34,400 bases of DNA from a virus. Its lineage: Duplodnaviria > Caudoviricetes. Under the pieces are notes generated by a model that was given only the letters and a program-made list of their open reading frames with translations, was not told the origin of the DNA and made no database searches. The position numbers and the translations under genes are program-made. The stretch covers positions 1-34,400 of the IMG/VR virus record IMGVR_UViG_3300020044_001445; one strand, 5' to 3'. The first letter of the stretch is position 1; every line of letters begins with the position of its first letter. Below are positions 20,776 to 30,718 of the stretch, piece by piece.

Positions 20776-20968
20776 CATAACCGAATACATTAAGGGCAAC
20801 CAATTGCGTAAAAATGCCAAGTGGAAAATTGCTGATGGTGAGTGGTTGTTTGAGATGCAGAACGGCATCTGGGGGTCGCAGAACCTATTTGATGAGTTCT
20901 ATCCCATATACGAATACAAAAAGTTTAATGATAAGGGAGTTAATCCGGATAAAACTAAGATAAGATGA
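20759..20968 (+). CDS. Hypothetical protein
   Basis: Likely start MKTTNSITEY; ATGA overlap with the methylase start. Confidence 0.6.
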   Translation: MKTTNSITEYIKGNQLRKNAKWKIADGEWLFEMQNGIWGSQNLFDEFYPIYEYKKFNDKGVNPDKTKIR

Positions 20969-22077
20969 CTCATGGATCACTATTTTCAGGCATTGGTGGA
21001 TTTGATTTAGCAGCAGAATGGATGGGATGGGAGAATAAATTTCATTGTGAATGGAATGAATTTGGTCAAAAAGTCCTACACCACTACTGGCCTGATGCTG
21101 AACAATTTACTGACATTAAAAAATCTAACTTTACCAAATATGCAAACAGAATTGATATTCTCACAGGAGGATTCCCTTGTCAACCATACTCATCAGCAGG
21201 AAAGCGACTTGGAAAGGAAGATGACCGCCACCTCTGGCCGGAAATGCTTAGAGCAATTCGAGAAATTCAACCGCGTTGGGTTGTGGGCGAAAACGTTCGC
21301 GGACTTACTAATTGGAATGGAGGGGTGGTATTCGATGAAGTGCAAGCTGACCTGGAAGATGAAGGCTACGAAATTACACCGTTTCTACTTCCAGCTTGTG
21401 CCGTCAACGCCCCACACCGTAGGGACAGAATCTGGTTTGTTGCCCACTCCACTCGCTTCAGCAATGGAACAAACCAACTTCGAGGTTTACGATGCGAGAA
21501 TGGAGAGATTGAAGGAGAAAGGTCACAAACCATTTACGATGCCACTCGACCAAATGGCATTGAGGGGGTTACTACCAACACCAACACCAACAGCAATGGA
21601 CTCCACAAATGCAACAGCAACAATGAAGTCAACTCAAGTGAAGGAGGGGTCAATGCACTCAGTAACATTAACGAGAGCAATGGCAATGGGGATGTTGCCG
21701 ACACCGATAGCAGGGGATTGGAAGGGTCAAAGGAGGTCAGACGGGACAGCATCAATGCTGAGTGGCAAAGCAAGTTTGGGCATGCTACCAACACCAAGGA
21801 CATCAGACGAGAGGATGCATTGGAAAACGGAGAATTGGAAAGGAGACGATTTGGGCAGTCATATCAACGAAATGCTTGGGACTCGTTCCCATCTGTCTCC
21901 CCAATTTGTAATGGAGATGATGGGATTCCCGACCGATTGGACTCTATTACCTTTTCTAAATGGAGAAACGAGTCAATCAAAGCAGGAGGAAATGCAATAG
22001 TTCCGCAAGTAGTTCTACAAATTTTTAAAGCAATAGAACAATATGAAAGAATCTCAGCTTCAGACAAAAGTAGTTAA
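20965..22077 (+). CDS. C5 cytosine DNA methyltransferase, alpha polypeptide (motifs I-VIII and X)
   Basis: SLFSGIGG, GGFPCQ, ENV, HRRDRIW and GNAIVPQV motifs; no motif IX; low-complexity middle region. Confidence 0.92.
   Translation: MTHGSLFSGIGGFDLAAEWMGWENKFHCEWNEFGQKVLHHYWPDAEQFTDIKKSNFTKYANRIDILTGGFPCQPYSSAGKRLGKEDDRHLWPEMLRAIREIQPRWVVGENVRGLTNWNGGVVFDEVQADLEDEGYEITPFLLPACAVNAPHRRDRIWFVAHSTRFSNGTNQLRGLRCENGEIEGERSQTIYDATRPNGIEGVTTNTNTNSNGLHKCNSNNEVNSSEGGVNALSNINESNGNGDVADTDSRGLEGSKEVRRDSINAEWQSKFGHATNTKDIRREDALENGELERRRFGQSYQRNAWDSFPSVSPICNGDDGIPDRLDSITFSKWRNESIKAGGNAIVPQVVLQIFKAIEQYERISASDKSS
21140..22000 (+). CDS. C5 methyltransferase beta polypeptide, nested in the +1 frame (TRD-like repeats plus motif IX)
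   Basis: Frame is open 21047-22000; four (L/M)LPTP units; LSPQFVMEMMGFPTDWT is motif IX-like; ATG 21140 has an A-rich leader. Confidence 0.8.
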   Translation: MQTELIFSQEDSLVNHTHQQESDLERKMTATSGRKCLEQFEKFNRVGLWAKTFADLLIGMEGWYSMKCKLTWKMKATKLHRFYFQLVPSTPHTVGTESGLLPTPLASAMEQTNFEVYDARMERLKEKGHKPFTMPLDQMALRGLLPTPTPTAMDSTNATATMKSTQVKEGSMHSVTLTRAMAMGMLPTPIAGDWKGQRRSDGTASMLSGKASLGMLPTPRTSDERMHWKTENWKGDDLGSHINEMLGTRSHLSPQFVMEMMGFPTDWTLLPFLNGETSQSKQEEMQ

Positions 22078-26456: not shown

Positions 26457-26548
26457 TGTTGCAACATTGATTGTTAATGTTTAAACATTGAATTTATTGA
26501 TTTTCAATATGCGACCATCTGCGAGCAATCAAACTATAAATCAAAACT

Positions 26549-26893
26549 ATGTTAGCTGATAAGACATTGGATAAGTTAATAGAGAAGCGTAAAGAGAACA
26601 GAGGAGGCAAGCGACCTGGTGCTGGCAGAAAGACTAAGGCAAGTGAAGAGGAGGTGATGGAGAAGCTACACCCAATGGCTAAAGACTTCTATGTGAAGAT
26701 GCATGAGAAGATAATTGAGGGTGATATGAAGGCGTTGCAACTCTTTGCAGCCTACTACATTGGTCTACCTACTCAGAAGATAGAATCCAAGATAGAAGGT
26801 AACCTAAACCAGATAGCCATTGAGATCATCAAGCCGAACATCCTGCTTCAGGACAATAGAACAGTACAGATAGAAGATAAAGATAATATATAA
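26549..26893 (+). CDS. terS: Terminase small subunit
   Basis: RGGKRPGAGRK motif and position upstream of TerL. Confidence 0.7.
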   Translation: MLADKTLDKLIEKRKENRGGKRPGAGRKTKASEEEVMEKLHPMAKDFYVKMHEKIIEGDMKALQLFAAYYIGLPTQKIESKIEGNLNQIAIEIIKPNILLQDNRTVQIEDKDNI

Positions 26894-27172
26894 GTCATTG
26901 ATATATAACTATCTGCAAGTCTACTTAACATAACATTAGTTATAGGGGTTACTAATATCGTTAGTAATGAGGCTGATTTGTGGCTGAATGACTCTATACG
27001 ATGGGGGGGACTTAAAGAAATTACTTTTGGGGCAGGGCTTGTATAACACCCACAAATAATTTTCACCCCACCAACCTTCATAAAATTGCTATATACGATG
27101 ACCCCCATTTTATACTAAACTTTTCAAATGGTAAACACATTCTCAAATTTTTTTTTTCGCTTCAAACTCAAC

Positions 27173-27180
27173 TACCTTTG
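27173..27180 (+). promoter_or_regulatory. TACCTTTG promoter box upstream of terL
   Basis: Matches TAnnTTTG, 26 nt before ATG 27207. Confidence 0.6.
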
Positions 27181-27206
27181 GTTGACCAAACAATAACTAA
27201 GATAAA

Positions 27207-29255
27207 ATGAATGCTACTTTACAAACGAACAAAATTTACGAGATACTGCAAGAGAGTGACAAACGCATCTCAGTAATGCAAGGAGGATCAAGATGCTTTA
27301 CTGGTGATACATTTGTCAGATGCCAAAATGAGTATAAGCGTATTAAGGATGTAACAATTGGAGATTTTGTGCATTGTGTAGACAATGACTACAATACTGT
27401 TTTAAGAAAAGTTGTTGATAAGTTTATATACAAGACTGACCATACTCGGCATAAAGTAATTACCTTTGAGTTAATCAATAATCAAAAAATTACTTGTACT
27501 TATGACCACAAATTATTACAATCAGGAGGATACGTTACTGCGTTTGACATTGCCAGGGGAATGTTGGAAGAAGGTAAATGGTTCGGATGGGAGGTATATG
27601 ATAAGCAATCTTGGAAGGTTATTAGCAATGAGTTACAAGATGAAGAAAGGGCCGGATGGAATCAGAGTTATGAAGCCAGCGAAGGATGCGAATGGGTATC
27701 TGAGGACAATGATACTTTTGAATGGGAAATACACGACAATAAAGATGCACAGGTTGGTAGCGGAGCATTTTGTGGAGAATTTGGAGCAAAAACCACAGGT
27801 CAACCATATCAACAACGACAGAATGGACAATCGGGTGGTCAACTTGGAATGGGTGACATTTCGGGAGAATATAGATCACATGATGAAGCAGGGAAGGCAG
27901 ACATTCAACAATGGAGAGAAGAATGGCAAAAGTATCCTTACAGAGAGTATTGTAAGAACTATACGGGAAGAATACAAGCCGTATGTGGTGATGGCGAAGG
28001 ACTTGGCGAAGAAGTACGGGGTGAAAACTTGCACAATAAAGGATATTCTGAGGAAAAGGAGCTGGGCAAGCGTATCCTAAGTATTGATGATGTTGAGTCA
28101 ATAATATTTCACGAAACTGAGGAAACTGTCTATGATATAGAGGTTGAGGAGTTTCACAACTATTTTGTTACAAAAGATAACTATGTAAGCCACAATTCTG
28201 GTAAAACGTATAATATCCTCATTTGGTTTATAGTGAAGCTTTTGCAAGAGAATGGCAAGACTTTAACTGTTGTCCGTCAGTCGCTTCCATCCATTAAGGG
28301 TTCAGTTCTTAGGGACTTTGTTGACATATTAACAAAACTTAACATATATTCAGAGGACAACCATAACAAGACTGAGCAGATTTATACATTGAATGGGAAT
28401 GTGATAGAATTTGTAAGTGCAGACCAGCCACAGAAGATAAGGGGTAGGGCAAGGACTTACCTTTTCTGCAATGAGGCTAATGAACTCAGTTATGAGGCAT
28501 GGATGCAACTTATCATGCGTACAGAGGGTAAGATAGTGATTGACTACAATCCATCAGATGTGGCGAGTTGGATTTACGATAGTGTCATTCCAAGGGATGA
28601 TGCTGATTTCAACATTACCACTTTTAGGGATAACCCATTCCTCCCAAAAGAACTGGTTGACGAACTTGAACGCTTGAAAGATGCCGACCCGAACTACTGG
28701 CAGATTTATGGCTTGGGTGAGAGGGGATTGAGCCAAGATTTGATATATACTCATTACCGAACTACCGAGAATATGCCGGAGGATGGAGAGGTAGTGTATG
28801 GCTTAGACTTTGGGTTCAATGTGCCGAGTGCCTTGGTGAAGGTTATGTTTGTGGAGGGGGCAGCTTATGCCCAAGAAATGCTCTATGAAACCAGGTTGAC
28901 CACAAATGATTTGGTAGATAGGCTAAAGCTTCTTAATATTGACCCGTACGATGAGATTTTCTGCGATGCAGCCGAGCCGAAAACTATTGAGGAACTCGTG
29001 AGAAACGGGTTCAATGCTAAACACGCTAACAAGGATGTGACCGAGGGGATAAGGACTGTGAAGGGAACTCCTTTGTATATTCATCAAGATAGCGTAAATT
29101 TACTAAAGGAATTGAAGAACTATCGGTGGAAAACGGATAGAAATGGCAATAAACTTGATTCACCAGTTAAATTTGGGGATCATATTTTAGATGCCCTAAG
29201 ATATAGCATTTTTAGTAAGTTAACAGTCCCTAAAATAACTTGGGGAGCAATATAA
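27207..29255 (+). CDS. terL: Terminase large subunit (PBSX-like) with intein; 381 aa after splicing
   Basis: Spliced Walker A GGSR/SGKT, FCNEANE, DYNPS, GLDFG and DHILDALRY motifs. Confidence 0.95.
   Translation: MNATLQTNKIYEILQESDKRISVMQGGSRCFTGDTFVRCQNEYKRIKDVTIGDFVHCVDNDYNTVLRKVVDKFIYKTDHTRHKVITFELINNQKITCTYDHKLLQSGGYVTAFDIARGMLEEGKWFGWEVYDKQSWKVISNELQDEERAGWNQSYEASEGCEWVSEDNDTFEWEIHDNKDAQVGSGAFCGEFGAKTTGQPYQQRQNGQSGGQLGMGDISGEYRSHDEAGKADIQQWREEWQKYPYREYCKNYTGRIQAVCGDGEGLGEEVRGENLHNKGYSEEKELGKRILSIDDVESIIFHETEETVYDIEVEEFHNYFVTKDNYVSHNSGKTYNILIWFIVKLLQENGKTLTVVRQSLPSIKGSVLRDFVDILTKLNIYSEDNHNKTEQIYTLNGNVIEFVSADQPQKIRGRARTYLFCNEANELSYEAWMQLIMRTEGKIVIDYNPSDVASWIYDSVIPRDDADFNITTFRDNPFLPKELVDELERLKDADPNYWQIYGLGERGLSQDLIYTHYRTTENMPEDGEVVYGLDFGFNVPSALVKVMFVEGAAYAQEMLYETRLTTNDLVDRLKLLNIDPYDEIFCDAAEPKTIEELVRNGFNAKHANKDVTEGIRTVKGTPLYIHQDSVNLLKELKNYRWKTDRNGNKLDSPVKFGDHILDALRYSIFSKLTVPKITWGAI
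27461..27468 (+). promoter_or_regulatory. Intein-internal TACCTTTG promoter-like box
   Basis: Same octamer as upstream of terL; 33 nt before the ATG of the nested HNH gene. Confidence 0.5.
27502..28080 (+). CDS. NUMOD4-HNH homing endonuclease nested in the +1 frame of the intein
   Basis: ECWKKV..Y.ISNLGR (NUMOD4); HRLVAEHF..VNHINNDRMDNRVVNLEWVT..EN..H (HNH); C-terminal HTH-like GEKNGKSILT..LAKKYGV. Confidence 0.9.
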   Translation: MTTNYYNQEDTLLRLTLPGECWKKVNGSDGRYMISNLGRLLAMSYKMKKGPDGIRVMKPAKDANGYLRTMILLNGKYTTIKMHRLVAEHFVENLEQKPQVNHINNDRMDNRVVNLEWVTFRENIDHMMKQGRQTFNNGEKNGKSILTESIVRTIREEYKPYVVMAKDLAKKYGVKTCTIKDILRKRSWASVS

Positions 29256-29260
29256 AAAAA

Positions 29261-30718
29261 ATGGGTCTATTTGACATTTTTGGGAAGAAGAAAGGATTGA
29301 ATCCTAATCAGAATGTTCCACCATCTTTTCAAGGCATAAATGGTGCGGTGCTTCAGCAATACAATCAAGAGAGTTATGTAAAGGATGGATACCTTGGGAA
29401 TGCTGATGTGTATGCAATTGTAAGCTTTCTTGCAAGAAAGTCTGCAAGTATTCCTTGGTACGTTTACTCTCTCAACTCTGGTGAAAAGGCAAGGACTTCA
29501 TTAATGAGGTACAAGCAATTGTCAAGAGGTATTCAAGCAGGCCAGGGTGCTTATGAGCAAGCAATCATGGCGAGAAAAAACGCTTATAGCGAAAATATTG
29601 TGATGGATGGGCCACTTGCTAAACTTTTGGAGAAGCCAAACCCTAACCAAGCACAAGACCAGTTCCTTGAGAACCTGATCGGTTACCATTTCCTTAGTGG
29701 TGAGGGTAACATCTACGGGAACACAGGACTGACAAGTGATGGGAAAATTTTGGAGATGTTTGTTCTTCCAACGCAGTTCCTTGACATATATCCAGACCCA
29801 AATGACCTTTATGGCATCACAGGGTATAAACTAATGGTTGACCAAGGTATTGACATAGAGAAGAGCAGAGTTTGCCAATGGAAAACATGGAATCCTGATT
29901 TCAATTCATCTACAAGGTCACACCTTAGAGGATTGTCACCATTAAGGGCAGCATACAAGACTTTGCGAATGAGCAACTCTGCTGCTGATGCAAGTGCAAT
30001 GATGGCAGCTAACGGAGGAGCAAAGGGTGCTTTAACTCCAAAGGTTGTGGGTTCAATCTCTGCTCAACCATCTATGGAGCAAGCGAACCTCATTAAGAGG
30101 AAGCTGAACGATGATGTGAATGGCGTGGACAATAAGGGTAGGATTGATGTATTGCAAACACCTTGGGACTATTTGAACTTTGGATTGAGTAGTGTTGACA
30201 TGGAATTGGTAAAGACTATGCAAATGTCAATGCACCAATGGTGTAGGGTGTTTGGCTTGCCTGCTGTGTTGTTTGACACAGATACATCAAGCTACAACAA
30301 CTACCAGAACGCAATGAGAGATTTGGTGACTAACACAATTGTTCCAAAGCTTTGTCAATTGCGTGATGAGTTGAACGCATGGCTTGTACCAAGATATGGT
30401 GAGAACCTATACATAGACTTTGACATTACTGCATTGCCAGAGATGCAACAAGATATGGAGAGGATGACACGTTCACTTCGTGATGCTAACTGGTTGACAT
30501 TTGATGAGAAGCGTGTTGCAATGAACTACTCTGAGAAAGAAGGGCCATATGAGTATAGCTATGTAAATGGTGGACTGGTAAGGCTTGACCAAGTTGGAAT
30601 GGATTTAACTATACCTAATGGAGGAACAAATAACAGCGTTGACTACGGAGAAGATGATATGGTCAATGGTGATGATTCGGCATCCCAAGACGGCAGCGGA
30701 GAAGAAATGCCGAATTGA
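29261..30718 (+). CDS. Portal protein (HK97 family)
   Basis: LLEKPNPNQ, GLSPLRAA and FGLPAVLF..SYNN motifs; start revised to MGLFDIF. Confidence 0.93.
   Translation: MGLFDIFGKKKGLNPNQNVPPSFQGINGAVLQQYNQESYVKDGYLGNADVYAIVSFLARKSASIPWYVYSLNSGEKARTSLMRYKQLSRGIQAGQGAYEQAIMARKNAYSENIVMDGPLAKLLEKPNPNQAQDQFLENLIGYHFLSGEGNIYGNTGLTSDGKILEMFVLPTQFLDIYPDPNDLYGITGYKLMVDQGIDIEKSRVCQWKTWNPDFNSSTRSHLRGLSPLRAAYKTLRMSNSAADASAMMAANGGAKGALTPKVVGSISAQPSMEQANLIKRKLNDDVNGVDNKGRIDVLQTPWDYLNFGLSSVDMELVKTMQMSMHQWCRVFGLPAVLFDTDTSSYNNYQNAMRDLVTNTIVPKLCQLRDELNAWLVPRYGENLYIDFDITALPEMQQDMERMTRSLRDANWLTFDEKRVAMNYSEKEGPYEYSYVNGGLVRLDQVGMDLTIPNGGTNNSVDYGEDDMVNGDDSASQDGSGEEMPN

Follow-up and report, generated by a model that had tools for sequence, protein, structure and literature searches.

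Here, we describe a candidate composite mobile element in the large terminase gene (terL) of IMGVR_UViG_3300020044_001445, a complete virus record with direct terminal repeats whose whole length of 34,400 bases is called the window below. The single terL gene of the window carries a class 1 intein at its Walker A codons, and within the intein, in the +1 frame, lies a gene for an endonuclease with NUMOD4 and HNH motifs that resembles the homing enzyme I-HmuI. We hold it likely, with good confidence, that intein and nuclease gene together form a working composite homing element whose nuclease is made as a separate protein.

Layout of the terL locus

The open reading frames (ORFs) of terL (27207-29255) and of the nested gene (27502-28080, 192 amino acids (aa), +1 frame) are as given in a first-pass annotation made from the sequence alone. 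The locus comprises:

27207-29255, + strand: terL ORF, 682 aa
27207..27293, + strand: TerL N-extein, 29 aa, ending in the first half of Walker A (GGSR)
27294..28196, + strand: class 1 intein, 301 aa, in frame with terL (Pfam, alignment, AlphaFold, Foldseek, profile search)
27294..27575, + strand: N-terminal splicing region of the intein, residues 1-94, with Cys1 and block B T69/H72 (alignment; AlphaFold per-residue confidence score, pLDDT, 82-93 for residues 1-90)
27576..28067, + strand: intein-frame filler, residues 95-258, G/E/Q-rich, stop-free, predicted disordered (pLDDT <50; composition; dN/dS, explained below, 0.9-2.0)
28068..28196, + strand: C-terminal splicing region, with block F D281, His300 and Asn301 (alignment; AlphaFold)
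28197..29255, + strand: TerL C-extein from SGKT (+1 Ser), with Terminase_3 and Terminase_3C (Pfam)
27502..28080, + strand: NUMOD4-HNH endonuclease gene, 192 aa, +1 frame, ATG in the block B codons, TAA 116 nucleotides (nt) before the intein end
27559..27711, + strand: NUMOD4 motif, residues 20-70 of the nested protein (PF07463, E 1.7e-8)
27745..27870, + strand: HNH_3 nuclease core, residues 82-123, with N101, H102, N110 and N123 (PF13392, E 5.4e-9; alignment to I-HmuI, 1u3e)

Class 1 inteins have Cys or Ser at position 1, TxxH in block B, an Asp in block F, a terminal Asn, and Ser, Thr or Cys at the +1 position. The TerL insert has all of these (Cys1, TYDH in block B, VYDIEV in block F, a His-Asn end and +1 Ser), which bears out the first-pass call of a 301-aa intein with intact splicing blocks in the TerL Walker A motif. 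Among 18 aligned copies, C1, H72 and N301 are invariant, and T69, D281 and H300 are kept in at least 90%. In the intein frame, Pfam matches Hint and, with a score under the curated cut-off, Intein_splicing; it finds no endonuclease domain there. An AlphaFold model built from the 18 copies is confident at residues 1-94 and 259-301 and not at 95-258; its top Foldseek matches are inteins and bacterial intein-like (BIL) domains, as expected of a Hint fold. A profile search with the intein matched solved inteins, and a single-sequence search of the PDB gave no match.

Computed excision yields the 381-aa TerL foreseen by the first-pass annotation, identical at 377/381 residues to the intein-less relative L013. 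The insertion is precise and in frame relative to 64 empty alleles, all of which read GGSRSGKT; the exact empty-site sequence proposed earlier is not among them, the nearest having AGC, not TCT, at the +1 Ser. Because terL is present once in a complete phage and the intein frame avoids stops, the intein likely splices out, restoring the Walker A motif. A split intein or fractured gene, which would need a stop behind IntN and a start of its own for IntC, was ruled out, with 0 stops in the intein frame in 24/24 copies. The inteins of L103 and L332 have Ala or Gly in place of the penultimate His, and their nested genes are intact.

The locus thus has a contiguous intein with an endonuclease in another frame and none in its own. 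Pfam places both NUMOD4 and HNH_3 in the +1 frame, in agreement with the NUMOD4 and HNH parts of the "NUMOD4-HNH-HTH" protein described earlier; its C-terminal helix-turn-helix (HTH) part has a weak PHROG 517 match (E 4e-5) and lies in a low-confidence model (pLDDT 53). The endonuclease VII-like frame-3 type of Gosselin et al. does not describe this NUMOD4-HNH_3 enzyme of the +1 frame. I-HmuI (PDB 1u3e) is the only strong solved relative (E 1.5e-14; profile E 3.9e-36, the profile aligning to 1u3e residues 2-167), and the nested protein shares with it the NUMOD4 motif and an HNH core with His and Asn. Residues H102, N110 and N123 align with I-HmuI H75, N83 and N96, which we take to be a catalytic His and metal-binding Asn residues. 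H102 is invariant across 117 sequences, and N101 replaces D74 of I-HmuI, Asn being usual at this position in the window nuclease family. An AlphaFold model of the nuclease from 9 sequences (pLDDT 53) was too poor for use. A group I or II intron around the nuclease was rejected, as Rfam gave only one chance-level small nucleolar RNA match over 26500-29500; Rfam also found no introns in 12 relative loci.

HNH proteins that serve as terminase cofactors carry a CxxC zinc site and occur with every terminase of their group. An HNH gene does lie in or beside terL in both nested and free relatives, but it is very unlikely that the HNH protein is a terminase packaging cofactor of the kind cited in PMC4422536, in the portion available, from Kala et al.: the nested protein has no CxxC zinc motif, its closest solved relative is a homing enzyme, and a relative occurs in 0/64 empty-allele loci within the fetched flanks (at least 1 kb upstream in 51 and downstream in 53).

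Selection on the two frames

From four public-contig scans, together with one that used the N half of the intein, we obtained 24 distinct complete copies; each sits at the Walker A motif, in terminases as diverged as the Terminase_3 and Terminase_6 types. In 24/24, neither frame is interrupted and the HNH core keeps its pattern, the inteins are 275-302 aa long, and the nuclease stop lies exactly 116 nt before the intein end in 20/24. Between the window and 17 copies, the ratio of nonsynonymous to synonymous rates (dN/dS) is 0.08-0.30 for the HNH frame, with saturation of dS in 4 pairs, and the intein frame gives 0.9-2.0, so the amino acids of the filler do not matter; this was the frame-specific check that the first-pass annotation had proposed. 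What the filler does keep is openness. A synonymous T that would make an intein-frame stop occurs at 0/1005 sites versus T at 953/1999 safe sites in the 24 copies, which are related to one another, and at 0/44 versus 39/77 sites in the window alone. The same class of sites carries T in 2546/5051 cases in 124 distinct non-nested relatives, whose -1 frame has a median of 20.5 stops. The count of 0/124 such relatives with the -1 frame open involves a circular argument and is given no weight here, and one of the 124 (L164) was later found to carry an intein C half.

Differences within a population follow the same pattern. The 31 listed of 39 differences in an X17 contig fall at HNH third positions inside the overlap (18/19) and at terL third positions outside it (11/12), changing frame at the ORF borders. 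Judged by these substitution patterns, both reading frames are kept by selection.

The sequence itself appears sound. The X17 contig spans 27230-28258 with 39 substitutions and 0 gaps (X17 is the only RNA run, used as contigs, and carries no information on strand, start or expression), and X1 spans 27312-28175 with 0 gaps. No read from the raw-read runs X21 and X22 aligned. There is practically no chance that an ordinary intein with its HNH in frame is disguised by a pair of sequencing errors that offset each other. One 105-nt X2 contig does show a local -1/+1 pair at 28050-28056, which leaves the overall frames unchanged, but both frames are open over the whole overlap in 24 distinct copies and in gapless independent contigs, and the independent assemblies already refute such an error, as the first-pass annotation had argued from the open frames. 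As weak evidence, no in-frame fused form with an intein or terminase domain was found among 120 listed of 302 longer homologues.

Start of the nested gene

The nested ATG is supplied by the block B codons TAT GAC, as first reported. The block B Tyr is TAT, making this ATG, in 19/21 copies that have this Tyr, compared with TAT in 60/100 of the intein background. The remaining 5/24 copies (2 with TAC, 3 with another block B residue) have an ATG 7-8 codons upstream; they form three independent lineages and so give modest evidence. It is improbable that ribosomes instead shift +1 near block B to make an extein-IntN-HNH fusion. The +1 frame of the window is open for 9 codons above the ATG and has an A6 run at 27484, but L001, L095 and L098 have a +1-frame stop only 3 codons above the ATG, leaving little room for a frameshift, and an ATG kept or replaced in 24/24 copies would be superfluous. 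The nuclease is likely translated separately from its own ATG.

Two promoter-like elements lie upstream of the two starts:

27173..27180, + strand: promoter-like TAnnTTTG motif TACCTTTG, 26 nt upstream of terL (putative function)
27461..27468, + strand: candidate internal promoter element TACCTTTG, intein codons 56-59, 33 nt above the nested ATG (putative function)

TAnnTTTG, and TGnTAnnnT below, are given in what we take to be their consensus forms; TAnnTTTG occurs in papers that also name promoters and Bacteroidetes. TAnnTTTG occurs no more than 70 nt upstream of terL in 36/56 distinct relatives. Inside the intein, it stands at one offset in 17/24 copies, across T, K and I codons, and in 4 divergent-clade copies TGnTAnnnT ends at the same base. 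TAnnTTTG also precedes 9/18 terL-adjacent free nucleases versus 21/314 background blocks. Invariant third positions among six lineages are concentrated here, with 15/31 in codons 40-70 compared with 6/74 in the rest of the splicing region and 11/154 in the extein (P about 1e-5, for a region picked after the data were seen). In the available part of PMC6847099, a -7 element lies 4-5 nt from the start site, the -33 element is weak and leaders average 33 nt; this spacing agrees with transcription that begins close to 27473 and leaves some 29 nt of leader. A promoter lying within the intein codons probably drives the nested gene.

Several points weigh against such a promoter: 3/24 copies have neither motif, TAnnTTTG was chosen after the data were seen and is not enriched window-wide (51 matches vs 43.8 +/- 6.5), no clear -33 element is found above the nested ATG, and the base at -3 of this ATG is C, where A is favoured in the text available of PMC6847099. 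The missing -33 element and the 3/24 copies would also suit a possible, though less likely, alternative, in which ribosomes initiate internally on the terL message to make the nuclease; there would then be no separate promoter, and the conserved upstream bases would serve just to keep the start unstructured. Around the nested ATG, 60 nt have a folding energy of just -1.4 kcal/mol, and about 97% of terL windows fold more strongly, but other copies do not share this lack of structure (down to -13.1 in L012), and internal initiation leaves unexplained both the fixed offset of TAnnTTTG across changed amino acids, with another promoter-like motif in 4 copies, and its presence before the free relatives.

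The host of the phage is probably a member of the Bacteroidota, because a Shine-Dalgarno word precedes 0/35 window starts checked, the TAnnTTTG motif is present, and the best annotated TerL matches, about 35% identical, are mostly from Bacteroides, Parabacteroides and Phocaeicola phages. A genome-contig search with the intein-less TerL as query gave no cellular relative. In the TGnTAnnnT clade, Shine-Dalgarno-like words precede 3/4 starts in L185, 1/3 in L332, 0/3 in L098 and 0/2 in L103.

Other genes of the window encode a major capsid protein, tape measure, helicase, C5 methylase, primase, portal, MuF protein and prohead protease, and a glycosyltransferase gene (Glycos_transf_1, 1432-2403) lies among head and tail genes at 851-2403. 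The window holds a second nested pair. A C5 DNA methylase gene (20965-22077, + strand; PF00145, E 3.5e-44) contains in another frame a 317-aa ORF (21047-22000, + strand) that matches PHROG 1008 'DNA methyltransferase' (E 1.9e-26) and terminates in a motif IX-like word. This pair resembles the M.EcoHK31I alpha/beta arrangement as described in the available part of PMC2836561.

Mobility, relatives and known systems

Including the window, 81 terL loci were collected, 64 empty and 17 with an insert (3 of the 17 cut by contig ends); because the filled allele served as the query, 64:17 is no population frequency. The inteins of L002, L003, L004 and L006 are 95.8-97.6% identical, compared with 85.6-90.2% for the first 480 nt of their 3' exteins, and at third positions the inteins are 86-97% and the exteins 64-74% identical. 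Intein presence on an extein tree (49 distinct exteins; 58/81 loci passed the length filter, with L001 and L012 among the 23 left out) takes 9 changes for 10 rows and is no more clustered than shuffled labels. Empty-site joints and intein contigs co-occur in X2, X4 and X17. Both signs of continued transfer, the intein-to-extein contrast in four copies and the scatter on the extein tree, are present; near-identical inteins in more diverged terL genes suggest homing, and the nuclease likely spreads the insert.

Two observations pull the other way: ordinary recombination can also yield scatter on the extein tree, and no clear co-conversion tract flanks the recent copies. The latter would be expected had the nuclease ceased to home, the element being inherited and shuffled by ordinary phage recombination. 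We regard this as improbable, since the HNH frame shows purifying selection at every depth, down to the differences within a population, 0/24 complete contiguous copies have a broken nuclease, and the inteins are more alike than their exteins. The first-pass annotation proposed an intein that shelters a separately translated homing endonuclease. Selection that differs by frame, the avoidance of stops, the keeping of a start codon and the signs of homing, all of them properties read from sequence, support this proposal well.

A working composite element would operate as follows. Ribosomes read the whole 682-codon frame, as stop avoidance shows, and the Hint halves would fold around the 164-residue disordered loop and splice, giving a 381-aa TerL (43.8 kDa) and a 34.9-kDa intein. 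The +1 frame encodes a maintained protein, as selection on it shows. Its translation would begin at the ATG at 27502, the message most likely being a short transcript that the TAnnTTTG element initiates, and, like other genes of this phage, it would do without a Shine-Dalgarno sequence. In a mixed infection, the 22.4-kDa enzyme would nick an empty terL close to its Walker A codons, and repair would copy the 903-nt element into the nicked gene. As to origin, the weakest step, a free-standing nuclease gene beside and targeting terL may have entered a mini-intein at the same site.

Relatives of the nuclease outside inteins bear on this last step. There are 126 distinct non-nested relatives; the 8 that score best all have a terL directly 3' of them, as do 17 of the 100 with enough flank. 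A quick HNH tree places the nested copies on one side of a branch, beside the terL-adjacent enzymes, and several terL genes beside free nucleases are broken at Walker A by a stop and hairpin or by 4-6 extra bases. L222 (820-2892) has a fractured DnaB-like helicase gene. Its split intein interrupts Walker A, and the two halves flank a NUMOD4-HNH gene that is related to the nested one and shares its +1 register; the intein frame there has 20 stops. In L164 (1-1768), a nuclease gene overlaps the C half of a terL intein whose 5' part is missing; the intein frame is open for the last ~120 overlapping codons, with 3 stops at the contig start, and this may be an intermediate or a secondarily split copy.

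These relatives would fit the collaborative homing described for introns (PMC2988022) and the gene-breaking model (PMC2677866), as set out in the portions available. More tentatively, one nuclease lineage may have been caught at several stages of attacking the terL Walker A site: free 5' of terL, beside stop-and-hairpin gaps that ribosomes would hop, within a split intein, and overprinted on a contiguous intein. The overprinted form would have arisen via collaborative homing and a split-intein stage, with about 20 stops purged, and a move between host groups would have rewritten TAnnTTTG to an extended -10 element inside the intein codons. If true, the staged forms at Walker A would show, as a living series, how an intein comes by its endonuclease. 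Against this account of origin stand the terL profile, seeded partly with these neighbours (Pfam confirmed 5/7 checked as terminases), the HNH tree, in which support for a single origin of the nested group is only 59, and the intein N-half scan, which found no mini-intein of this lineage at this site, so that the proposed ancestor is not observed.

Other observations concern the same genes. Candidate ribosome-bypass gaps occur in the terL Walker A of L100, L105, L122, L125, L193 and L202, where terL is just 3' of the nuclease, and of L264-L304. A scan for YGGAIR followed by a stop gave 53 loci (43 distinct), 19 of them on terL; these 19 resume with an Arg codon and GGK after 6, 7, 10, 11, 39 or 41 nt, the long gaps contain a strong hairpin, and a nuclease relative lies upstream in 5/19, two of which were known from the nuclease search. 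A ribosome-bypass case from a Streptomyces phage is described in the available part of PMC10732093. The intein N-half profile also detected split-intein loci near position 1500 of L333, L338, L341 and L342 with an unrelated long ORF between the halves. The same TerL family has a second intein, of 270 aa, that follows KFGDHI in the nuclease domain (L006 4981-5790, L014 1107-1916, L044 4078-4887, L047 1205-2014); it carries a different HNH_3 gene in the +2 frame (E 2.9e-11) with TAnnTTTG 38 nt above the ATG. Both inteins are present in L006, and L335 has a similar +2-frame element.

The first-pass annotation knew of no description of this architecture, but the general layout, an out-of-frame endonuclease in an intein, is already in print (PMC4422536, 2015; preprints bioRxiv 10.1101/2025.01.02.630785 and 10.64898/2026.09.14.751524, 2025 and 2026). 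A literature search that covered subscription papers and preprint supplements little, so that these may list cases, found no NUMOD4-type enzyme nested in an intein and no promoter inside intein codons; terL-adjacent free relatives of an intein-nested nuclease were not found in print. In the available parts of the literature found, out-of-frame intein endonucleases are so far known only from sequence, and the way in which the hidden gene is expressed is not described. Here, changing TAT to TAC would abolish the nuclease start and leave the intein unchanged, and synonymous changes would remove the candidate promoter, giving point tests that affect one frame. The intein-borne enzyme is also tied to free-standing relatives beside the same target gene, so acquisition of an intein endonuclease by collaborative homing, as proposed for introns, becomes testable. 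Gene callers keep one frame, and such inteins therefore look decayed though they are not.

The comparisons that follow rest on the available portions of the papers cited. The brucellaphage TerL intein (PMC4422536, Virol J 2015) likewise has an HNH gene out of frame in a large-terminase intein, where a change in one frame is silent in the other. As compared by description, its enzyme is a 687-nt ORF with zinc-binding sites, whereas that of the window is a NUMOD4-HNH protein without CxxC, and the layout is mentioned there in passing, with no analysis of selection or start signals in the text available. Gosselin, Arsenault and Gogarten (bioRxiv 10.1101/2025.01.02.630785) report out-of-frame and antisense endonucleases in actinobacteriophage inteins. 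As in the window, these are contiguous inteins, often in TerL, with an unstructured in-frame middle, an endonuclease in a separate frame and signs of continued transfer, and an origin from a free-standing endonuclease is proposed. Their same-strand case is endonuclease VII-like and in frame 3, their HNH cases are in frame, and the available main text does not contain the word 'NUMOD'; in their account a second ORF is usually found outside the splicing domain, in contrast to the nested start of the window, which is inside block B. A cyanobacterial dnaX intein with a +2-frame LAGLIDADG enzyme (bioRxiv 10.64898/2026.09.14.751524) shares with the window separate overlapping splicing and homing frames, a disordered in-frame middle, frame-specific dN/dS and coexisting empty alleles. 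It differs in its chromosomal host gene, LAGLIDADG enzyme and Shine-Dalgarno motifs, and in having mini-intein alleles, none of which was found for the window element.

Fractured genes with split inteins (Dassa et al., PMC2677866) have a same-strand endonuclease gene between the intein halves, as in L222; unlike these, the intein frame of the window is stop-free and gives one polypeptide. The ShiLan domain (PMC11855218) is an out-of-frame HNH under a stop-free phage methylase frame that appears to home, with no splicing domain and in a non-essential host gene. I-HmuI (1u3e), an HNH homing enzyme that nicks DNA and is encoded by a group I intron of a Bacillus phage (nicking by this class is described in PMC2988022), shares the NUMOD4 motif and HNH core with the window enzyme, and differs in being intron-encoded, in its C-terminal DNA-binding part, and in targeting DNA polymerase rather than terL.

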